Shown: in pieces, positions 28,301-59,621 of the stretch
Position numbering within the stretch: the first letter of the stretch is position 1
Layout: each line of letters starts with the position of its first letter
Assembly (NCBI GenBank): GCA_051294905.1
Contig: CM119371.1
Span: 29,886,001-29,950,000 of the forward strand
Direction: 5' to 3'
DNA: 64,000 nt
Origin: Botryllus schlosseri
Taxonomy: Eukaryota
Notes under the pieces: generated by a model
What the model was told of the DNA's origin: nothing
The model's database searches: none
Seen by the model: the letters and a program-made list of their open reading frames with translations, nothing else
Translations under genes and position numbers: made by a program

Positions 28301-30957
28301 CATTGCCTGATTGCAAAAAAGCACACCTCTCCCCCTTTTGATTCACCCCTGAAGATTGATGACACTTTTGCGAATTGTCCATGAATAACGTCTTTTCATT
28401 ACCACATTATATCAAACATTGATAGTACGGATCTGCTTCGCGAATATATGAAGTATTTAACTCATTATTGTTTCTGCCTTAAGTATCACGAATGATCAAC
28501 AACGCAGTAATAGGCGGCCGCTGTTCCCACCCAGCATTTGGAATGTGCGACAACGTACCATCGGTGACATGCACCGAACCAACAATTCTGTTGAAGGCTG
28601 GCATCACGGCTTCCGCGTTCTAGTTGGGGGATGTCACGTAACCATTTGGAAACTTTTAGAGTGTATCAAGTGAGTATAAACAATGGAAGATGTATATGTG
28701 TACTTGGTTTCAACTTGAATATACATATATTTTTGAAGGAAGGATGTCATACAAAATCGAGTGCAGCTGTTACAAACTTCCACAGGCCAGGCAACGCCTA
28801 AAAGAAAGAAAAAATACGTCGACATTAGCGACAAATTGAAGCGGCTTTGTGATGCAGCGTGGTCAACCGACATGACTACAGATTTTCTGTCAAGAGTGGC
28901 ATACAATCTAAGTGAATAAATAGATAATAGCGATCACCACATATTTAGCATCCTTTCTGACGAAGAAACGCCAAGTCTGTGTTGGTGATCACCGCTGTAC
29001 CACCTATTTATCCTCTGGATGTTTCATTTTAGCATGCCACAGACAAGTAATAAAATGCAAATAACCTGGAACATGATTGCTTATAATTTTGGAGTTTCTG
29101 GGCTTACAGTAAATTTAGAACTTCTCAGTCTCTTATTTTTGCTAGCCGTAGAAGCTTTAAAACAGTAGGAAAGGAGCGACAAGGAAATATAGCGTGACTA
29201 TATGCAAGATAGCGTAATGGTTGGCTGTCAGTTGTCAGGTTGCTGAGTAAAACGGCAGCCTACTGACAAACTATTCTGCGATTGTAACAGGTAGAATTAT
29301 CATCATCGCGAAATGAAATTCGGGTCCAATTAGTACGGTACAGCGACGCAACATATCATTGAATATAGATATGATATATTGCATTACAAAGGTAAGTGCA
29401 TAATTCGTTGATTGTCCGATTGTTGAGCGAAGCCATTACCTAGGAATCACAATCGTCACGTTCATAATCGAATATATTTCTGCGTAGGAATATTACGCAG
29501 TGTACAGTTTGTCTAGGTTTGCTAACTGCTTTAGATGAAAAATGTACCTCGATCAATTGTATACGCAGCGATCAACGAAGTTTCTTTATCTTGTGTTGTT
29601 AAATCCTGATGAACGCGATAATAGACTTTTTAATCAACCCAGCTTTATTATCTACGCCCTACATTAAATTGTGTTTGCGCCCAAAATCACCACAAGACAC
29701 GTTCTCTTACGATAATTCGTGAGCCAGATTTTCGTGACGGTCACTACTGATTGAATACGCACTTTCTCCATAGTAATCATCTGCTACCAATATTAATTCT
29801 TGTCTACTTGATACACTCTATTCCCGAATTATCGCGTCAGCCTAAACATATGAATTATCGCGTCAGCCTAAACATATATGTTGACCAATGTGTAGAATGT
29901 CTAACCGTCTACTGAAAATGAGTAGGCCCATGCCGCAAATGAAAAATGTAGACCATGATTTGCCAGCATATTTGTTACTCCCTTTGCGAGCTCTGTGAGA
30001 GTTGATGCCTTCTCGATTTCAACCATATTACACTCTTTTGAGATATGCATGACAGCTGGATGCTACAGATTTCCGTATCAGTGAAGCGAAGTAGGCTAAT
30101 TCGTATGTCATGGTTGGTACACGAATCGGAAACGTTGTAGACAATCAGCTGATATTGTAAAACCGCTTTAAAACCAACCCTATTGATCGATGATCAGATC
30201 ACATGCTTTAGGAATTAGGACTATAAGTTCACGTGTACAATTTATGCATGCAGTCATGCAGGCATGTCATGCATATGTAGGTACAGATCGCGTGTATGTG
30301 CATCACGGCGTCGCCACATTCGGTATCAATTCTCAGGTATAATTTTCCCGACAACGTTCGTCTCAGTAAGTTAGATTCTCGACATTGGCAATTCTCGGTA
30401 ATGTCCATTCTCGGTAGTGTCCATTCTCGGTAATGTCCGTTCTCGGTATTGTCCATATTCTCGGTAATGACCATTCTCGGTGGTGTCCATTCTCGGTAAT
30501 GTCCATTCTCGGTGGTGTCAATTCTCGGTAATGTCCATTCTCTGTTGTGTCCATTCTCGGTAATGTCCATTCTCTGTTGTGTCAATTCTCGGTAATGTCC
30601 ATTCTCTGTTGTGTCAATTCTCGGTAATGTCCATTCTCTGTGGTGTCAATTCTCGGTAATGTCCATTCTCGGTGGTGTCAATTCTCGGTAATGTCCATTC
30701 TCTGTGGTGTCAATTCTCGGTAATGACCATTCTCGGTGGTGTCAATTCTCGGTAATGTCCGTTCTCGGTGGTGTCAACTCTCGGTAATGTCCATTCTCTG
30801 TGGTGTCAATTCTCGGTTGTGTCCATTCTCTGTGGTGTCAATTCTCGGTAATGTCCATTCTCTGTGGTGTCCATTCTCTGTAATGTCCATTCTCGGTAAT
30901 AGCGTTCTCGGTAATGTCCGTTCTCGGTAATGGTTTTCTCGGTATTGGTATAGAACC
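25351..30957 (+). mobile_element. Mutator-like (MULE) foldback element B with satellite TIRs
   Basis: 9-bp TSD GTGAAGCAC (25342-25350 and 30958-30966); GG...CC ends; ACCGAGAAT satellite arms ~25360-26200 and ~30391-30947 inverted; FLYWCH-like relic at 27211-27440. Confidence 0.85.
27211..27440 (+). pseudogene. FLYWCH-type zinc-finger remnant in foldback B
   Basis: MAEQSGPNVLAKYITST*GNKLIAVGEFVFRRMK/fs/YWICTHYDRKKCRCSLKV...QEHNH; contains stops and a frameshift. Confidence 0.65.
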
Positions 30958-31175
30958 GTGAAGCACGGTCCACAAATACTCTTGATTAGTCACTGCCGTT
31001 AGATACTGCTAGAGATCAAACTTTTCTGCATGAGTGAGTACGTGTCCATGTAACTGGATCGATAAACCAAGCAAAGCAGCGTCAACTCGTCAAGCAGATT
31101 TGAGTCCGGTTCTCAACTAAATTGTACCAGAAAGTTTTAACAATTTGCTTGCGGATTGTCTTGTCAGTTCACATC

Positions 31176-31469
31176 ATGAGTAAGTCAGTAAAAGTCTCCG
31201 TCGAATACTGTGGTAGCTGAGGATACGAAGGACGCTTCAATGATCTGCAGACAAAAGTTCAGGACGAATTCCCCGACGTGGAAGTCGAGGGGGTCGTCGG
31301 CCGTCCGCAATCATACGAAGTGTCCGTCAACGGAAAGCTCATCTTCTCCAAGCTCGAAACGTACGGATTCCCCAATGATAAAGACATCATTGACGCCGTC
31401 GAAAAAGCGTGCAAAGGCGAAGAAGTAGCTCAAATTACGGACAGTGCCAGCCCGTGCAATATTTTATAG
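31176..31469 (+). CDS. MIEN1: Rdx-family selenoprotein, MIEN1/SELENOW2-like, 97 aa, Sec encoded by TGA 31218-31220
   Basis: MSKSVKVSVEYCGSUGYEGRFNDLQTKVQDEFPDVEVEGVVGRPQSYEVSVNGKLIFSKLETYGFPNDKDIIDAVEKACKGEEVAQITDSASPCNIL: V.YCxxUGY, EV.VNG.LIFSKL...GFP and terminal CaaX (CNIL); SECIS downstream. Confidence 0.95.
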
Positions 31470-32170
31470 TTTTCAATATTTCATGGTATAGTTTTCGCTT
31501 CAACGGTGGGTGTAGTTGGTTAACGGAAACACGGATCACGATATCTTTTTGCTGGAACATCTTGATGTAATGTTTTCAATCTGAATCAATGGTTACGTCA
31601 CAACCATACTAATCAAATGCGTGCTTCAATTTTGTATTTCTCTATATGATTGATCATTGAGTACTTGAGTTTTGTAGGAAAGCGAGATTCTATATTGCAC
31701 CGCACACAGACATGTCCCCTTACAAGTGCGTATATATATATATATATTATTAAGGACATTTTACGAACAGCTGTGCCAAAATATAGGCATACTGGAAAGA
31801 TCTACTTGCTTGTTCATTCAGCCACTTGAGACTTAGGCTATGGTTTCGGAACAAAATCAAAGTTTAGGTTTTACTGTAATGGTAACCTTACTCCAAACAG
31901 ATGAAGAGTGTAAAAATCATGATGTTACATGTTGCAAAATTCACTCTTTGCTATTTCCAATGTTTAATCTTGAAATTTACATGACTAACTACTATCGTTA
32001 TAATTATATAGTGATATCCCACATTACACTGTTTCAGTGAAAGCGTTGACTGCATATATTCACATCAAGACTGGTGTGCATAGTTCATTTACGGTGTTTC
32101 ATTTAGTATCTTGCCATTTTGTGGTTGGTTTGCGTGAAAGTTTCATTTGTGCGTTTATACGTCTCTATCT

Positions 32171-32236
32171 ACAATGCATTTAATGACGGCATGATTGCAA
32201 ACCTTTCCCAATCATGCCCGACGAGACATTCATTGT
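32171..32236 (+). promoter_or_regulatory. SECIS element in the selenoprotein 3' UTR
   Basis: ATGAC core (32183), 10-bp perfect helix GGCATGATTG/CAATCATGCC, unpaired AAA 11 nt after the core, 3' CGAC completing the G.A/A.G quartet, lower helix ACAATG/CATTGT. Confidence 0.9.
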
Positions 32237-32261
32237 TGACTGGTAGACGATTGCTTACAAA

Positions 32262-32277
32262 TGTAATTTTTCAACAG
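32262..32277 (+). promoter_or_regulatory. Candidate (trans-)splice acceptor for MRPL37
   Basis: TAATTTTTCAACAG ending 8 nt before the MRPL37 ATG. Confidence 0.55.
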
Positions 32278-32285
32278 GAATTCAT

Positions 32286-33647
32286 ATGGCTAATCGCGGT
32301 TTTCGAGTAGCCAACGCGCTATGTCCGTTTTACGGAGCGTCAATCTCCATAATCCCAATTCGAACAATGAGATACCATGCGTGGGGCGGTATGAAACGCG
32401 GCAAGAACCGGATACCTCTCGACTGGCGTAAAGTGGACCACAATCCCGCCAAGATACCGTGGGCTTGGATACCGGATAAATGGAAACAAGAACACAACAT
32501 CGATTACGAATACGAGAAAGAGCTTGCAAAGTATATTCCAGGTTACGAGCCAAAGATACCAGACGAGGAACACCCTGATTATCACGAAACAGTCAACTAT
32601 TCATTTCACTCTGATACAAAACTAGTGGAAGGATTTCGGCAAGCTTTGTGCCTCACAAAATCCGTGTTGTATGAAGAAATGCCTCAAAATATTCAACAAC
32701 TTGAAAGCATCGATGAGATTCCCGATCAAGATGAAAAAGTGGTTCCGATCTTTCAAAAGGCCAACCTTTTTGACATCGACCCTGTTAATTTAGACTTTGA
32801 AAACAGCAAAGGCAGACGTTATCAAGATAACTTTTTAGTTTACCCCACCGTGCAGCGTATATGCCCCTCTGTGTTAGAAAATTTGATTAGACTCTGTTAC
32901 CAGCATCCTCTTTCGTCAAGAGTTATATCCACCAGAATTCTCGCTAAGGATGTGGAGTGCTCCACATACATGCAGAGAAAATGTGATGTTGACCCAGAAA
33001 TGACAAGCCTCATCGATAACAACTGGCTTGTATCGTTCAAATCGCAAGGGGGCATGCATCTTCTATCGAAATGTCCTTTAAAGCCGTTCGCGAATGCCAA
33101 AGAAATAGAAAATACAAAGTCGGTCGCTTTGCCGAATATATTCCCAGTGTTGCCGGTCGTAGATTTAATCAAAAAGAATATCTACAAAAACATAACCTCA
33201 ACTGGTCTTTCAAATGGTGCCACACTGTCTAACTTACACACTCTATTTCTGCTAAACCTGTCCGGATTGACCGCTGAAGAATTGTATGGGCAGATGATAT
33301 GTCAGTTATTTACCTGTCTGCATTCACGTGCTGTCGCCAAATATGGTGCAGAGCCCCTGGACCTCCCAGAACCGATATCCGCTCAAGCGATCGGCAGTGA
33401 TGGACAAAATTTTCATTTTGCATGCATGCAATTGAACACTACCATGATGGACAGTGACCAGGGTGTCAAAAATATGGTGTGGACCAACGCGCCTTACGAG
33501 GACTCGTCACTGGGTCGTAGGTACCTATCCATACCGATGTACGACAAATGCGCGCATAATCATTGGGAAAGTCAGGAGTACTATTCCGGTTATGATCCGT
33601 CTGTTTTTCGAACCTTTTTAGCTATGTGGCTCAACGGAACTGTGTAG
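32286..33647 (+). CDS. MRPL37: Mitochondrial large-subunit ribosomal protein mL37, 453 aa, intronless
   Basis: Longest ORF in window; Arg-rich, acid-free N-terminus; motifs QALCLTKS, LPEPISAQAIGSDGQNFHFACMQLNT, GVKNMVW and FRTFLAMWLNG recognisable as mL37. Confidence 0.92.
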   Translation: MANRGFRVANALCPFYGASISIIPIRTMRYHAWGGMKRGKNRIPLDWRKVDHNPAKIPWAWIPDKWKQEHNIDYEYEKELAKYIPGYEPKIPDEEHPDYHETVNYSFHSDTKLVEGFRQALCLTKSVLYEEMPQNIQQLESIDEIPDQDEKVVPIFQKANLFDIDPVNLDFENSKGRRYQDNFLVYPTVQRICPSVLENLIRLCYQHPLSSRVISTRILAKDVECSTYMQRKCDVDPEMTSLIDNNWLVSFKSQGGMHLLSKCPLKPFANAKEIENTKSVALPNIFPVLPVVDLIKKNIYKNITSTGLSNGATLSNLHTLFLLNLSGLTAEELYGQMICQLFTCLHSRAVAKYGAEPLDLPEPISAQAIGSDGQNFHFACMQLNTTMMDSDQGVKNMVWTNAPYEDSSLGRRYLSIPMYDKCAHNHWESQEYYSGYDPSVFRTFLAMWLNGTV

Positions 33648-33742
33648 TCGTCTGCTCAAACACAGTAAAATAACATTGAATACCAAGTTGCAAGTCTCTT
33701 TTGGCTTTGAATTTAAGAAGTTTCAGTGTATGCCTAGTAGAC

Positions 33743-35103
33743 CAGAGGTTCTTAAACTTGAGATACCAGAATGTTTGCAATCCCAACCAGGGTTGTAATG
33801 ACTCGAGTCGCGATTTTCTTATGACTCGACTCGAGTCAATCTGTGTATTGACTCGGACCAAGTCATATGACTCGAGTTTCAGACAGCCATGTCTGACATT
33901 TCGTTATATATAATTTCGAAGATTAGTAAAGTAACCACACTGTTGGTATTTCGCCTATTGGTACTGGTTCTTGAAAATATGACCAGAAACTGCTAAAGGT
34001 GAGGTGAGGATAATTAGTATATTTTAAATGCAAACCATTGGATATCACCAGACAGAGTTATAAAAAGTGCTTTTAACAAGACCGTGCAGTCAACGCAATG
34101 ACTTGGACTCGAGTGAGAATACCATGACTCGGACTCAGTGGTGAATTGAAAATGACTCGACTTGTGACTTGGTTAGTGGTTAAAACGCATTGTTTGTTGG
34201 CATGGAAGGTGTTATGGCTGCTGAGAGACTCTTCAAGTATGGCATTCGGATTATACACAGAGCAATAATTATGAGCAGGGGTTAAATCGTGTGGAGCATT
34301 GTAAATTTTGTTGAAACATAATCATGCGCAATGGCAACACGTAGCACATGGATATTTTAGTGGTTTGGGTTCCTAATACCTTCTATTACAGTTCGGTAAG
34401 GTTAAACGTACCTGACCATAAGCTAAATCAACAACCAATGGTACAACTACACACATTCACCAGTTACTCTTCATCTGATTAGTGCATGGTTCGGTACCCG
34501 TCGAAATTTAGCATCAGTATGTGGATGGTATCACGCAATTTTGACGCTTGAAATCAAAATATAATTAAGATTATTGCCATTGTTGAAACTTGGGAGTGTC
34601 AGCACAAATTAAAGTTATTCCTAGTTTTCGCGCCAGGGTTTTAATGACTGTAGTGGTGATATTTTGGTAACTCAACTTGACTCAGTTATTTTTTCAAATG
34701 CATTAAATGACTGGCCTCGAGGATTGACTTGAGTCATATGACTCGGGACTAGGCTGGCCGAGACCGACATTTCATTGTAACTTGGAAGAATAATAAACTC
34801 TATCAGGAAAATAGGGCCAGAAACTGTTGAAGGCCGAGGAAATTACTATATTATGATTGCGGGCAATCTATATAACTCAAACAGAGTTGAAAAAATGTAT
34901 CGAATTGAGCTGAACAGTGAACAAAATGACTTGGACTCTACCCTACTAGCAGACTTGGACTCGGTGGTGAATTGAGAATGACTCGAGTCAAAACTATATA
35001 AGTGAGATTATCTTGACTTGGTTACAACCCCGCTTCGTGACTCCCCTCTCCCCTCAGACGCTTTCGTGCCCTCATGGGGTCGGTGCCAGTTTGAGAACCA
35101 CTG
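33743..35103. mobile_element. hAT-type MITE enclosing a GACTCGAGTC-rich element (~33788-35031)
   Basis: Outer TIRs CAGAGGTTCTTAAACT / AGTTTGAGAACCACTG with flanks TAGTAGAC / TACTGGAC; inner ends CAGGGTTGTAATGACTCG / GACTTGGTTACAACCC. Confidence 0.7.
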
Positions 35104-37018: not shown

Positions 37019-40000
37019 TCACAAGTCACGGAGCCGCAAACAATCGCTGAGAATCTTCCAGACGTCGCTGACCGAAGATATCGTGAAGTCCTGCGTAAAG
37101 GATTTCAAAGTGTTGCTGTCATATTTGACGGTCCCTGTCACGAGGACCATGCACGTTGACTTGCCCTCGGTGAACCGGGTCAGGACAGGCTGGCAATCGA
37201 AACTGTCCACGGTGTGGTAGCATGTTGGCAGATCCTGTATGGAAATAATAATCGGTTCAAAGTAAGATGAGACCAGAGGTGAACAGTAACAAATTACTTT
37301 CTACTTTTTTGAGAGAGAATTTAGTCGGTTCCATGAACATCGAAAATACATAGATACATGAATACAAAGCAAAGTTAAGTAAGTATATATAATTTAATCA
37401 GAGGTGGTCAAAGTAGTCAAGAAAGCTACTCAAGTAGAAGTAGAAGTAGCGACGAAAAAATCTACTCAAGTACGAGTAGAAGTACTTCTTCAATGAGCAA
37501 CCTAAAACTACTTGAAGTAGAAGTAGATTTTACTGACTTTAAAAGTACTCAAGTAAGTAAGTAGTTGTGAAAACGATCGTAATTCGTTCACATGGATAGT
37601 AAAAAAGTGCAAATTGAGCTATGCGAAAGGTGACGAGCTTATTGATTCATATTGATGTATACCAGCAGGCAGGTCTCCAATTTTCGATATGCATTCGTCC
37701 ACATCATGGGATGAAAATGATAGTATTGATATGGAAATGCGATACTAATCCTCTGTTTACTCAAAAAGCACGTTTTAGAAAATATCATGGTACTGCGCAC
37801 TCCCCATGTTATAAGGCCTGTAGTTTAGTCGAAGAGCAATACGGAGATGTTGTATTGGATACGGTGTAAACACTTTGTGCGATTAGTAAACGTTAAAATG
37901 CTATATTGTGTAGCTTTATTTCTGGAAATTGAAGAATTTACTGCACTTGTTTTTATACTTCAACATGTACGTTATCCAGACAAAAGAACTGATATAAATT
38001 AGAAATCAAAATATATGGTACTGGGAATTGAAAGTGAAATATGAATCTAAAAATGGAACATGTATTTATAATGTCTTTAGTCCAGAAAGTTTCGAAGGTT
38101 GGTATGCTAAAACAGTTCTAAAACTAAAAAAAATTCAGAGTCCACTTTTCCAGATTAAGACAAGCCATGGACAGCTTGATTACAATATGATAAGTAAATG
38201 CTAGATTAGTTTCAAACTTTATGATACTGTGATGAAATACTTGATATGGCGAAGGGCTATAATACGGTGTGAACGGAACCACGCCAATCCGCTACCTAAA
38301 TTATATTCACCGATACTTTGGTAAAATCATAATAGTTACCCCCACTTCACTGCGCGCGAAGCGCGACTAAAATTCTGGGCTCAACTCAACTCTTATGAAA
38401 ATTAAATGTCGATACTCCGTGAAAACAGCACGAATTTCTCAAGCTATCTTCCTGATTGGAGGATTAAACTACTTCTACTTGACAAACTGAAAATAGCGAA
38501 AAGTAAGTAAGTAGATCACAAAATATTATGAAGTAGAAGTAGAAGTAGTGAAATTCAGTTCTACTTGAGTAAGTACCAGAAGTAGAGGAAAACTACTTGA
38601 GTACTTCGAAAAGGTAGAAGTACTTCGTTACTGACCACCTCTGAATTTAATTCAGAAACAGGCAGTAGCGAAGGGATCAGGAGATCTACAAGTCAGCTAC
38701 AGCCTGAAAGGATGGTTGTAATGTGAAACTTGAAACAAAATATAACACGTTTGCAATGTAAGAAAACAGATGAAAACTAAGTGAAAACATTCACAGTAGG
38801 CAGGGTTGTAATGACTCGAGTCACCATTTTCTGATGACTCGAGTCATTTTCTCAAAATACTGAAATGACTCGAGTCAATCTGTGTATTGACTCGAGTCAT
38901 TGCGCATGACCCAAACCAAGTCATATGACTCGAGACTCAGACGGCCAAGACTAACATTTCATTGTAATTTCGAAGAATAGTAAAGTAACCACACTATCGG
39001 GATTTCATCTATTGGTACTGGTACTTGAAAATGCGTCCAGAAACTGCTAAAAATGACGAAAATTAGAATATTATAAATGCGAACCATTCAATATCACCAA
39101 ACAGAGTTATATAAAGTGGATTTAACAAGCCTTTAACTGGAAACTGGACAGTCAACACAATGACTTGGACTCGACTCGAGTCATAATACCATGACTCGGA
39201 CTCGACCCTCTGCTCGGTGACTTGGACTCGGTGGTGAAATGAAAATGACTCGATTCAAAACTATAAAACTGAGATTGACTTGTGACTCGGAGCCTGGTGA
39301 CTTGGTTACAACCCTGGGCTGTAGTGAAGGGATCGGGAGATCGTCAAGTCAGCTACATCGTGAAGGATGGTTGTAATACGAAACTAAAAACAAATATAAC
39401 ACGTTCTCAAAGCAAAATATAACATGTTCAAGTACATGTTCACGGCTTAACAAAACAGATGGAAACTACATGGAAACATTAACAGTAGGTAACGATAACA
39501 CTTTGGCGCTGGTTACAGGAACACAAACTAGGCAAAGGAAAGGAAAGGACGTAGTTTATTTTTGTCCTGATGTTTTTTGCGGCATATATACCGACTCATT
39601 ATACACATAGACACGATCTGCGCATATGCATACCATGAGTTCATGATGTGCATATGCCGCTGGACAAGGAAGTGCAGATATAGCCTTTACGGCTTTCTAA
39701 GTCACGCACCACCTCTCCATGCTATCCCAGTAATGCATGAGCGCCAAGCAGGGAAGTCATGGATACCAGTGTTACTAATCAGGTCTTTGGTCTGACCCGA
39801 CCGGGGATCGAACCCACGACCTACCGATCAAGAAGCCGGACGCTTCACCATTACGCTATCTTGTCGGCAGAGATACTGATCAACAAATTCATAAAGAATT
39901 TTCATACTTTCCTACAAGATAATCGTAAAACATTTGTTTAAGGATATGGAGAGGTTTATCTTTAATTCGGTGCACTGATGTAGGTTTTGCGTATTTGTGG

Positions 40001-46851: not shown

Positions 46852-48448
46852 CAGGGGTCGGCAACCTTTTGCTAGTCGCGGGCCAAACTTCGGGTGTACA
46901 ACCTTTTGGCGGGCCGGATTCTTTCCTAGTACTATATTTTACGTTCACTTCGGTATATTATCGTACATTGCTGCAGTCTCAATCATACCAATCCGAAGAC
47001 ACATGTATTTACACTTCAACGACGCAGAATAGGCCTAATTGTGACAATTGACGCAGCTTTGCTTTGTGAAAGGTTTTTAACTTCTGGTAACAAGTCAGAT
47101 GAAACAAGAATCAGACCCTATTCAAAATGGACGTCCGAAATACGTGATCTTAGCTTGCTCTTCGTGAATTTCATTGTTCAAAACTATTGTTCACATGCGT
47201 ACGTGCTTCCAAAAATCGATGCAATTTTTTTTGCATTGCTGGTCAAGCTGGGATAAAGACCAATTTCACGAACGCACTCTTTGTCAAAGTCATGCAGTCA
47301 TGCTCTTGGTATAAAATTTGTCGTTCAATTCAACTGCATCGCATTTCAGAAAGGCCCATTTGAAATTTTCAGGCAATGGTTTTGCCGTCCACATTAAACA
47401 GAGTACTGAATAGTCAGAATTCATTTTGTAGAGAAGGAATGTCGGAAAAGCGGGTGAATATTCAGTAGTTAAATTTTGTATCACAGTTACAAATGTAATG
47501 TTGGTACTAGGTTTTCTCTCCTCCAGTATAGGAAAGTGAGCATAATTTTTTTTGTACTGTTGACATTTCAAGAGTCACAGATTTGTTTTGAATGCCCCTC
47601 AACATCTCATGTATGTAGTTGTTTTCCCCCTGAAGTTGCAAGTTGAATTTGTTCAGATGTGACGTTAAATGTACCAGGAAAGCAAGATGAGACACCCATT
47701 TTCGATTACAAGATTACGAGTCGGCGATATTTGTATTTTCGAGGAAAGTTGCTATTTCATTTCCCAGTTCATACACTCGTGTAAGCATAGCTGCTCGACT
47801 CAATGAGCGAGCATGACAGATATAGGCCTACATGACATCGCCATATTGATTCTCTGCTTCTAGTAATATCTGGCGTAACTGATTCAGTTGATGAGACAAA
47901 AATCATATCAACAGTTTTCCCCATTGTGGCCAAAACACTATTCAGGTTTTTTGTCTTGGCACACGATGCCTTCTGGAAAATCAAACCATAGACAGGCTAA
48001 CTAACATACGGAGGCTAGTTATCTATAATTGAATAGTTTGAGATTCCGTCATTGCGTCTCAGATGCTCCAAGCGTTTTTGAAGCAAAGGAAGAACACCTT
48101 TATTGTCACACGACTCACACCCCGTTAGAGTGATTAGCCCTTTAAAAAAGCACGAAACACCTTCGGTTGCGAGATACACCCGATTGATAAGTACTGATCC
48201 AGTCTAGTCTATCTCCATCTCCTACTTCAACCACCTTTGTTTTATGGCGTAACAATAGACTAATACGATGTAGGCTACTATTATATCGTACAATGCCGCA
48301 TTTTTTCATGCAGCGCTGCACTGCAGATTGAAACTCATTATGAAGCGGCGGGCCGCATTCTTGTGATAACCAATTATTATGTCGCGGGCCGTACGATTTC
48401 GCTTGGCGGGCCGGATCCGGCCCGCGGGCCGTAGGTTGCCGACCCTTG
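46852..48448 (-). mobile_element. 1597-bp deleted hAT (Buster/SPIN, GTF2IRD2-like) transposon, copy 1
   Basis: TIRs CAGGGGTCGGCAACCT / AGGTTGCCGACCCTTG; TSD TCGTATAT; minus-strand relics LAFLVHLTSHLNKFNLQLQG and SIFGSTYACEQ. Confidence 0.93.
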
Positions 48449-48583
48449 TCGTATATGAACATAAGTAGCATAGGCTATTTCGTTATAGATCTATTTGACT
48501 TGATATTTTTCTTGACACTTCGCGCAATTTATTGGCACTAGGTTTCTTTCTTTTAGTATATATTCGTCCCTTCCTGAAAATTA

Positions 48584-57531: not shown

Positions 57532-59128
57532 CAGGGGTCGGCAACCTTTTGCTAGTCGCGGGCCAAACTTCGGGTGTACAACCTTTTGGCGGGCCGGATT
57601 CTTTCCTAGTACTATATTTTACGTTCACTTCGGTATATTATCGTACATTGCTGCAGTCTCAATCATACCAATCCGAAGACACATGTATTTACACTTCAAC
57701 GACGCAGAATAGGCCTAATTGTGACAATTGACGCAGCTTTGCTTTGTGAAAGGTTTTTAACTTCTGGTAACAAGTCAGATGAAACAAGAATCAGACCCTA
57801 TTCAAAATGGACGTCCGAAATACGTGATCTTAGCTTGCTCTTCGTGAATTTCATTGTTCAAAACTATTGTTCACATGCGTACGTGCTTCCAAAAATCGAT
57901 GCAATTTTTTTTGCATTGCTGGTCAAGCTGGGATAAAGACCAATTTCACGAACGCACTCTTTGTCAAAGTCATGCAGTCATGCTCTTGGTATAAAATTTG
58001 TCGTTCAATTCAACTGCATCGCATTTCAGAAAGGCCCATTTGAAATTTTCAGGCAATGGTTTTGCCGTCCACATTAAACAGAGTACTGAATAGTCAGAAT
58101 TCATTTTGTAGAGAAGGAATGTCGGAAAAGCGGGTGAATATTCAGTAGTTAAATTTTGTATCACAGTTACAAATGTAATGTTGGTACTAGGTTTTCTCTC
58201 CTCCAGTATAGGAAAGTGAGCATAATTTTTTTTGTACTGTTGACATTTCAAGAGTCACAGATTTGTTTTGAATGCCCCTCAACATCTCATGTATGTAGTT
58301 GTTTTCCCCCTGAAGTTGCAAGTTGAATTTGTTCAGATGTGACGTTAAATGTACCAGGAAAGCAAGATGAGACACCCATTTTCGATTACAAGATTACGAG
58401 TCGGCGATATTTGTATTTTCGAGGAAAGTTGCTATTTCATTTCCCAGTTCATACACTCGTGTAAGCATAGCTGCTCGACTCAATGAGCGAGCATGACAGA
58501 TATAGGCCTACATGACATCGCCATATTGATTCTCTGCTTCTAGTAATATCTGGCGTAACTGATTCAGTTGATGAGACAAAAATCATATCAACAGTTTTCC
58601 CCATTGTGGCCAAAACACTATTCAGGTTTTTTGTCTTGGCACACGATGCCTTCTGGAAAATCAAACCATAGACAGGCTAACTAACATACGGAGGCTAGTT
58701 ATCTATAATTGAATAGTTTGAGATTCCGTCATTGCGTCTCAGATGCTCCAAGCGTTTTTGAAGCAAAGGAAGAACACCTTTATTGTCACACGACTCACAC
58801 CCCGTTAGAGTGATTAGCCCTTTAAAAAAGCACGAAACACCTTCGGTTGCGAGATACACCCGATTGATAAGTACTGATCCAGTCTAGTCTATCTCCATCT
58901 CCTACTTCAACCACCTTTGTTTTATGGCGTAACAATAGACTAATACGATGTAGGCTACTATTATATCGTACAATGCCGCATTTTTTCATGCAGCGCTGCA
59001 CTGCAGATTGAAACTCATTATGAAGCGGCGGGCCGCATTCTTGTGATAACCAATTATTATGTCGCGGGCCGTACGATTTCGCTTGGCGGGCCGGATCCGG
59101 CCCGCGGGCCGTAGGTTGCCGACCCTTG
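57532..59128 (-). mobile_element. 1597-bp deleted hAT (Buster/SPIN-like) transposon, copy 2
   Basis: Apparently identical to 46852-48448 (same ORFs offset by 10680); own TSD GGTTAGTG. Confidence 0.93.
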
Positions 59129-59621
59129 GGTTAGTGGTTTCGTTATTTGAACACTCTGTTGATTCACACATTATTTTGTGCACCAGTATAATGTATTATA
59201 TATGCCTATAGTGAGATGTTTATCGTGGTAGATTTTCGTTTTATGAATTTGGGTTACATATTAGCGCAAGAGTTCCGCGGGTTATGAAGGTTAAGAAGCA
59301 CTGCATGGTTTACAAGTAGCCATAGACCGAATTCAGCCGTGGTGTAGTGTGTCGACTTGCTCAAAAAATAATTCGTGTCCCGGAGGCGTTATGATTTTCC
59401 ATTTTTAAGACTCTGTTTCACTTTTTGCAACCAGTATGGTTCCAACGAACCATTTGGGACAAATCTTCAGAATAACGTGAAGCATCATATTGTTAATTTA
59501 TTCGCTAAAAGCTTTTCGACTCAGTAGCGGACGTCAGTTGGCTAAGGGTGCATTTGGTTTGCTTCAAATGATTTCGTGTGCCATGAAATATCGTCTCGCG
59601 TGCATTTATCGCAATCTTGCG

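Follow-up and report, generated by a model that had tools for sequence, protein, structure and literature searches.

[quoted passage not shown] 2006, PMC1488885). There, 41 of 55 upstream cDNAs were polyadenylated on the G of the AG, AATAAA was absent in 16 of 18 cases, and dicistronic RNAs were detected for no more than 11 operons. The same paper proposes that trans-splicing makes the upstream 3' end and, in the text available, leaves open both debranching and the mutual exclusivity of the two messages. A total of 1,310 candidate operons, 60% with a single-exon first gene, was subsequently reported (Satou et al. 2008, PMC2760879), and intercistron-less SL-resolved operons cover about a fifth of Ciona genes (Satou et al. 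2006/2008; PMC1488885, PMC2760879).

Two other systems are relevant. [quoted passage not shown] Within Botryllus schlosseri, the adjacent same-strand genes fuhc sec and tm, which are separated by a 227-bp gap and of which the second is without SL, have been considered a possible operon (PMC3691228). The pair analysed here consists of a predicted selenoprotein gene and the gene for the mitochondrial ribosomal protein MRPL37, located in a 64-kb stretch of Botryllus schlosseri DNA that is referred to, over its whole length, as the window.

Methods

RNA reads of four of the 24 listed runs were compared with positions 30970-33787 of the window. Run X22 is a single-cell run (1137 reads), run X24 is a bulk run (729 reads), and run X1 is a contig run that was presumed to be of RNA. 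Run X21, which has another organism label, covered only 31203-31238, a conserved stretch of 36 nt, had flanks that differ from those of the window, and was set aside as a paralogue or another species; record 2 of X1 was rejected as a paralogue. Branch points were predicted with a scan for yTnAy. A scan of the locus for bacterial promoters, which is irrelevant to a eukaryote, found nothing. The features of the locus are compiled in Table 1.

Table 1. Features of the selenoprotein-MRPL37 locus, in positions of the window
Feature	Position	Strand	Details and basis
Selenoprotein mRNA 5' UTR	31069-31175	+	contig X1 record 1, X24 depth; 5' end about 31069-31090
Acceptor-like motif TTGTCTTGTCAG	31156-31167	+	ends 8 nt before selenoprotein ATG; use not detected
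ORF, putative Sec-type MIEN1/SelW2 (Rdx family)	31176-31469	+	97 aa, intronless, CxxU, C-terminal CNIL
Donor-like GTAAGT	31180-31185	+	just after start codon; splicing to 32278 would keep the MRPL37 frame, not seen
Selenoprotein mRNA 3' UTR	31470-32277	+	808 nt; outron-equivalent for MRPL37; X24 depth, X22 peak
SECIS candidate	32173-32234	+	model match, 22.2 bits; below Rfam gathering score of 35
SECIS core	AUGA 32183-32186; 10-bp helix 32188-32197/32209-32218; AAA 32199-32201; GA 32220-32221	+	model match and fold
Predicted branch point CTTAC	32254-32258	+	A32257, 20 nt before acceptor G; yTnAy scan
Trans-splice acceptor TTTTTCAACAG	32267-32277	+	ends 8 nt before MRPL37 ATG; G32277 is also the upstream poly(A) site
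MRPL37 5' UTR, genomic part	32278-32285	+	8 nt, behind 25-nt spliced leader
MRPL37 (mL37) ORF	32286-33647	+	453 aa, intronless, PF07147
MRPL37 3' UTR	33648-33690	+	short; X22 3' peak, X1 contig end 33687

The two genes

The upstream reading frame contains a single in-frame TGA, at codon 15 (31218-31220). Its product matches the Rdx family (PF10262, E 1.6e-18), and human C17orf37/MIEN1 aligns with residues 4-97 (E 5.9e-25), the match of SelW to residues 6-69 being far weaker (E 1.3e-06). The second Cys of MIEN1 aligns with the UGA, homology extends on both sides of the UGA, and in a relative that is 70% identical (P0009) the same codon is read through. The C-terminal CaaX-type motif, a class of motif that serves as prenylation site, is CNIL here versus CVIL in human C17orf37/MIEN1. 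Since SelW2 is the Sec form and Rdx12 the Cys counterpart (PMC3316567), the upstream gene is, judged by pairwise matches and not by a tree, a Sec-type MIEN1/SelW2. The Rdx fold family is common to this protein, MIEN1/C17orf37/Rdx12 and fish SelW2 (PDB 2LJK; PMC3316567), as are the position of the CxxC/CxxU motif, the C-terminal CxIL and alignment over the full length. Tetrapod Rdx12 has Cys, whereas the Botryllus gene has Sec (UGA), like fish and frog SelW2; unlike MIEN1/C17orf37/Rdx12 and fish SelW2, it is intronless and, on the interpretation preferred below, operonic. Both SelW1 and SelW2 are listed for Ciona (PMC2874816), and no named ascidian MIEN1/SelW2 was among the matches of the protein search.

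A candidate SECIS element is located within the 3' UTR of the selenoprotein mRNA, as delimited by RNA reads. The model match had an E value of 0.49 in one search and 0.13 in another, and no core feature is missing: AUGA, the GA/GA core, a helix of 10 bp and the apical AA are all present. Folding of the hairpin region gave a z of -2.23, with 3 of 200 shuffles equally stable, and the lower helix of the centroid fold reaches 32236, the very position at which the SECIS had been said to end in an earlier note made from the sequence. The only polymorphism among the listed variants inside the element, at 32208, is in the apical loop. The UGA and the SECIS are 953 nt apart, a distance not far from the mean of 872 in mammals (PMC3316567). 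From the alignment at the UGA together with the SECIS, insertion of Sec at 31218-31220 is predicted.

The downstream reading frame gave a full-length, colinear alignment with named mL37 proteins (seven matches among 2817 candidates), with identities of 47% to Styela clava mL37 and 39% to Ciona. Four X1 pieces cover this gene, the last ending at 33687, and its 3' peak in X22 is located at 33414-33601 (depth 45-54). AGTAAA at 33664 is a probable variant poly(A) signal of MRPL37, and no poly(A) loose ends behind the gene were among the listed rows. The coordinates given in the earlier note for both genes and both acceptor-like motifs hold, as does its description of two intronless genes on the same strand; no splice joint in either gene was listed from the RNA reads.

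The junction between the transcripts

Poly(A) tails in X22 start directly after G32277 in 17 of 21 listed reads (95% interval of the fraction 0.58-0.95) and after 32276 in the other four. Because only 6 of the next 20 genomic bases are A, 32277 is a true end and not a product of internal priming. In X24, 10 of the 11 reads over 32284 carry the end of the template-switch oligo and a leader joined at 32278. The loose 5' parts of these ten reads, before 32276, have a median of 53 letters, the length expected of a 30-nt oligo followed by 23 letters of leader; the 5' end of the cDNA is therefore the leader. Counted with the shared AG, all 25 letters of this leader agree with the published Botryllus schlosseri SL (supplement of PMC3795323). 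The window does not encode the leader, its best match there having 16 of 23 letters. Poly(A) evidence is from X22 only and leader evidence from X24 only; as each end rests on one run and on the listed loose ends and variants, minor sites may exist.

Both mRNA ends meet at one phosphodiester bond. With poly(A) at 32277 and the leader at 32278 the intercistronic distance is 0 nt, and two predictions of the earlier note, a leader joined at 32278 and an upstream 3' end at 32277, about 40 nt past the SECIS, are thereby borne out. Its further statement that intergenic DNA is essentially absent stands for the transcripts and fails for the coding regions, since 816 nt separate the stop codon from the next ATG.

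Coverage of the 3' UTR is continuous, with unbroken X24 depth and a single X1 contig extending from 31069 to 32249. One selenoprotein 3'-end peak is seen in X22, with a depth of 285-499 at 32004-32191 and of at most 4.1 in the bins of 31064-31909. The only splice joint listed for the compared region, 31794/31845 with 4 reads, is on the opposite strand. An unspliced RNA spanning the junction was found in no contig (X1 has nothing in 32250-32461) and could be represented by at most 1 of the 11 X24 reads; among the reads and contigs compared, none was recognised as dicistronic.

Two sequence features noted earlier carry little weight by themselves. Neither AATAAA nor ATTAAA occurs in 31460-32300, in agreement with the reported absence of AATAAA from 31470-32280; both are also absent from 33640-34300, after MRPL37, so a missing AATAAA alone is a weak sign. 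Acceptor-like motifs are common next to ATGs: of the 1315 ATGs on the window's + strand, 82 have one at most 12 nt before them, and the occurrence of two such motifs at this locus is therefore not evidence in itself.

The 5' end of the selenoprotein mRNA

Contig X1 record 1 begins at 31069, five molecules start at 31090, and X24 depth is zero in 30970-31063, 29 at 31106 and 49 at 31159. The earlier note had also proposed trans-splicing at the acceptor-like motif that ends at 31167, and this proposal was not upheld. The 49 X24 reads at 31159, all of which have C in place of T at that position (49/49), cover sequence upstream of the proposed cut after 31167, and the X1 contig from 31069 crosses the site. 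No loose read ends at 31166-31168, and no SL reads joining at 31168, were among the listed rows (the smallest X24 row listed has 9 reads). The site is not detectably trans-spliced; reads run through it and the 5' UTR is retained.

Mixed loose ends were observed before 31089 (12 reads, agreement 0.64). Their median of 54 nt is the length of the oligo plus leader. The consensus agrees with the oligo-leader form in 14 of 30 letters, a value reached by 455 of 20000 shuffles in a post hoc test, and the window has CG, not AG, at this position. These ends may just as well stem from divergent alleles or from a mixture as from a leader on some molecules.

The donor-like hexamer at 31180 could in principle be spliced in cis to 32278, which would produce the MRPL37 mRNA and leave the selenoprotein ORF nested in an intron. 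The hexamer has a perfect +1..+6 donor consensus and the joint keeps the frame of MRPL37, yet 0.2 such hexamers would be expected in 1.2 kb, the frame fits by chance in one of three cases, and the exon side, TGA, is poor. No such joint was listed (threshold 3 reads), and so the cis-spliced upstream exon of MRPL37, which the earlier note had set against an operon, did not appear. As the main route to MRPL37, cis-splicing is refuted by the SL on 10 of 11 reads, and it is scarcely conceivable as an explanation of the locus.

Resolution of the two messages

The zero-gap pair is probably transcribed as one pre-mRNA that is resolved by a single trans-splicing cut. Transcription would start near 31069-31090 and run to about 33690. 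The spliceosome would form a branch between the intron part of the leader RNA and an A of the selenoprotein 3' UTR, for which A32257 is the predicted candidate, and join the leader to 32278, releasing an upstream RNA that ends in ...CAG-3'OH. This RNA would then be debranched and polyadenylated without AAUAAA. Candidates for yTnAy were found at 32232, 32239 and 32257; only for 32257 is the AG at 32276-77 the first one downstream, and A32257 is predicted to be unpaired. About 970 oligo-dT-primed reads are located upstream of A32257. The captured molecules were thus passable by reverse transcriptase, which fits an unbranched product and is silent on earlier branching.

Upstream depth exceeds downstream depth 5.2-fold in X24, 8.4-fold at the 3' peaks of X22 and 4.5-6.9-fold in X1, depth being a rough measure here owing to divergent haplotypes and filtered reads. 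Since one cut yields one of each message, an unevenness of 5- to 8-fold counts against a strict one-to-one output; to explain it, the messages would have to differ in stability, or some cleavage would have to occur without leader transfer. In the single-cut explanation, a longer life of the selenoprotein mRNA would account for it. Trans-spliced mRNAs of Ciona are on average 2-3 times less abundant (PMC1488885).

The unevenness, seen in three runs, is also what would favour mutually exclusive processing, a possibility raised in PMC1488885. Most pre-mRNAs would then be cut at 32277 by splicing-independent cleavage and polyadenylation, which destroys the acceptor, and a trans-spliced minority would give MRPL37 while its branched upstream part is degraded. 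The 4 of 21 poly(A) reads that end after CA can be counted for this scheme; however, the shift of oligo(dT) or the trimming that PMC1488885 describes would account for them too. The other 17 ends coincide exactly with the splice bond, which has a G on either side, an AAUAAA-type hexamer is absent 10-40 nt upstream, and independent cleavage at the same bond was argued to be unlikely for Ciona (PMC1488885). Mutually exclusive processing is accordingly considered unlikely for this pair.

Alternatively, in a hybrid arrangement, a separate promoter within the selenoprotein 3' UTR may drive most transcription of MRPL37, which would then be a monocistronic gene with a short outron. Ciona outrons average 438 nt with a peak near 100 nt (PMC4691747), and such lengths would fit the 808-nt UTR. 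The bin 32076-32176 is 67% G+T, a feature reported for outron starts, and X22 template-switch ends are listed at 31981, 32067 and 32121 with 4-5 reads each. These ends are, however, few relative to bin depths of 30 to 499, and they are scattered, as is expected of short cDNAs in 3' libraries. X24 depth has no clear step up inside the UTR, and a separate promoter would leave the upstream poly(A) site on the acceptor G unexplained. This arrangement is judged quite improbable.

A coupling of Sec decoding to operon resolution had been suggested in the earlier note and is compatible with the single cut. SECIS folding or SBP2 binding near the branch region would tune trans-splicing, so that MRPL37 output would depend on selenium status. 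From the end of the SECIS match it is 43 nt to the cut, 23 nt to the predicted branch A32257 and 5 nt to a weaker branch candidate, A32239. Against tuning, the SECIS overlaps neither the best branch candidate nor the acceptor, Ciona operons generally show the same pattern at the junction, and the geometry is partly forced, because a SECIS has to be placed in the 3' UTR, which in turn can extend no further than the acceptor. Such tuning is very improbable, and the same slight probability is given to the version in which the spliceosome makes the selenoprotein 3' end and SECIS-bound factors 23 nt from the branch point gate the cut, selenium thereby controlling MRPL37. No evidence of coupling was found in the data compared, the junction behaving like the ordinary ones of Ciona (PMC1488885). 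Under the single-cut explanation the SECIS is likely a passenger, which only restricts the cut to positions 3' of about 32236. One upstream 3' end of Ciona operon 15 is 67 nt short (PMC1488885); a 3' end displaced to that extent would cut the SECIS, so the placement of the SECIS is a constraint.

Comparison with known operons

The pair shares with the operons of Ciona poly(A) addition on the acceptor G with 1-6 nt of microheterogeneity, an SL on the downstream message, the lack of AATAAA and a single-exon first gene (PMC1488885, PMC2760879). The first gene in Ciona is mostly not trans-spliced (14 of 20), and the same applies to the Botryllus selenoprotein gene. The pair differs in its 25-nt stolidobranch leader, that of Ciona being 16 nt, in having a selenoprotein upstream with a SECIS near the cut and, unlike Ciona, in that no dicistronic cDNA was seen. 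The Ciona class is delimited by less than 100 nt between same-strand transcripts, and there are 0 nt here; the lack of AAT(T)AAA up to 40 nt from the poly(A) site of the upstream message, which is typical of the class and not required, was also observed. In spacing, in the SL of the downstream message, in poly(A) addition on the acceptor G and in this lack of AAT(T)AAA the locus agrees with the class, and the assignment of the locus to the Ciona-type intercistron-less SL-resolved operons is well supported. [quoted passage not shown] The fuhc sec/tm genes resemble the pair in being adjacent on the same strand, and differ from it in their gap and in the missing SL of the second gene (PMC3691228).

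A metagenome scan gave three loci, from 58 candidate stretches, that are 28-35% identical to MRPL37, none with an Rdx match (best E 0.26); two of the three have interruptions of the kind found in multi-exon genes, and in none is an ascidian origin apparent. One of the two supplementary files of Satou 2006 contained no match for selenoprotein, MRPL37 or C17orf37, and the SLOPPR supplements none for five gene names; these lists may use model ids, so the blanks say nothing on the conservation of the gene pair. In the literature searched, mostly open-access papers and including the available part of PMC4528330, no description of a selenoprotein in a trans-spliced operon was found. The same searches gave no paper on a zero-gap operon with a stolidobranch leader, which Gasparini and Shimeld 2011 (botryllid SL) may show.

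Significance

For annotation, the locus illustrates how a UGA hides the first gene and how the end of the selenoprotein gene is marked by no poly(A) signal. It is also a compact test case for two questions that PMC1488885, in the text available, leaves open: whether both messages come from a single pre-mRNA, and whether debranching of the upstream product takes place. Since Sec read-through needs an intact 3' end, it provides a functional read-out that is inherent in the upstream product. With this pair, an operon type known from Ciona gains a new example, and the link to selenium is unsupported. The read evidence, which extends to the single base, indicates that zero-gap operons of the Ciona type also occur with the stolidobranch leader, in another ascidian order.

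Splicing signals and read ends at the selenoprotein gene

A perfect donor consensus, GTAAGT, is located at 31180-31185, directly 3' of the selenoprotein ATG. This donor-like site precedes the MRPL37 acceptor, which is trans-spliced all the same. A hypothetical cis joint between the two was computed to be in frame with MRPL37, and no such joint was found in the RNA reads.

In the bulk RNA run X24, 12 reads carried mixed loose 5' parts at 31089 (median 54 nt, agreement 0.64), which may reflect allele divergence, a cap site, or a leader present on some molecules. Ten X24 reads each at 32106, which is the G of an AG, and at 31668 departed from the window sequence into unrelated sequence, and the best match of the departing parts elsewhere in the window was 18/30. 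These departures may represent an allelic insertion or a library chimera.

Surrounding features

Tandem array, near-identical frames and NTF2-domain frame in the window
Feature	Position	Strand	Details
Tandem array	30389-30944		16-bp unit, ~34 copies
Near-identical frames, pair 1	46930-48474 and 57610-59130
Near-identical frames, pair 2	401-730 and 2205-2585	- and +
NTF2-domain frame	37022-37300	-	PF02136, E 5.6e-07

Between the end of the tandem array and the downstream 5' end of the selenoprotein transcript lie ~125 nt, and similar arrays are present at other places in the window. The near-identity of the paired frames points to a duplicated segment or repeat in both cases. The NTF2-domain frame, which is presumably NXT1-like, points toward MRPL37.

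Relatives of the selenoprotein

Reads (X21, a run labeled as another organism) and a contig (record 2 of contig run X1) of a paralogous Rdx/SelW-type selenoprotein matched only the CxxU-coding stretch at 31194-31238. The selenoprotein relatives P0009 and P0015 were found on contigs of 1182 and 1155 nt, and the similarity of these sizes to that of the selenoprotein contig here (1175 nt) hints at a conserved mRNA length.
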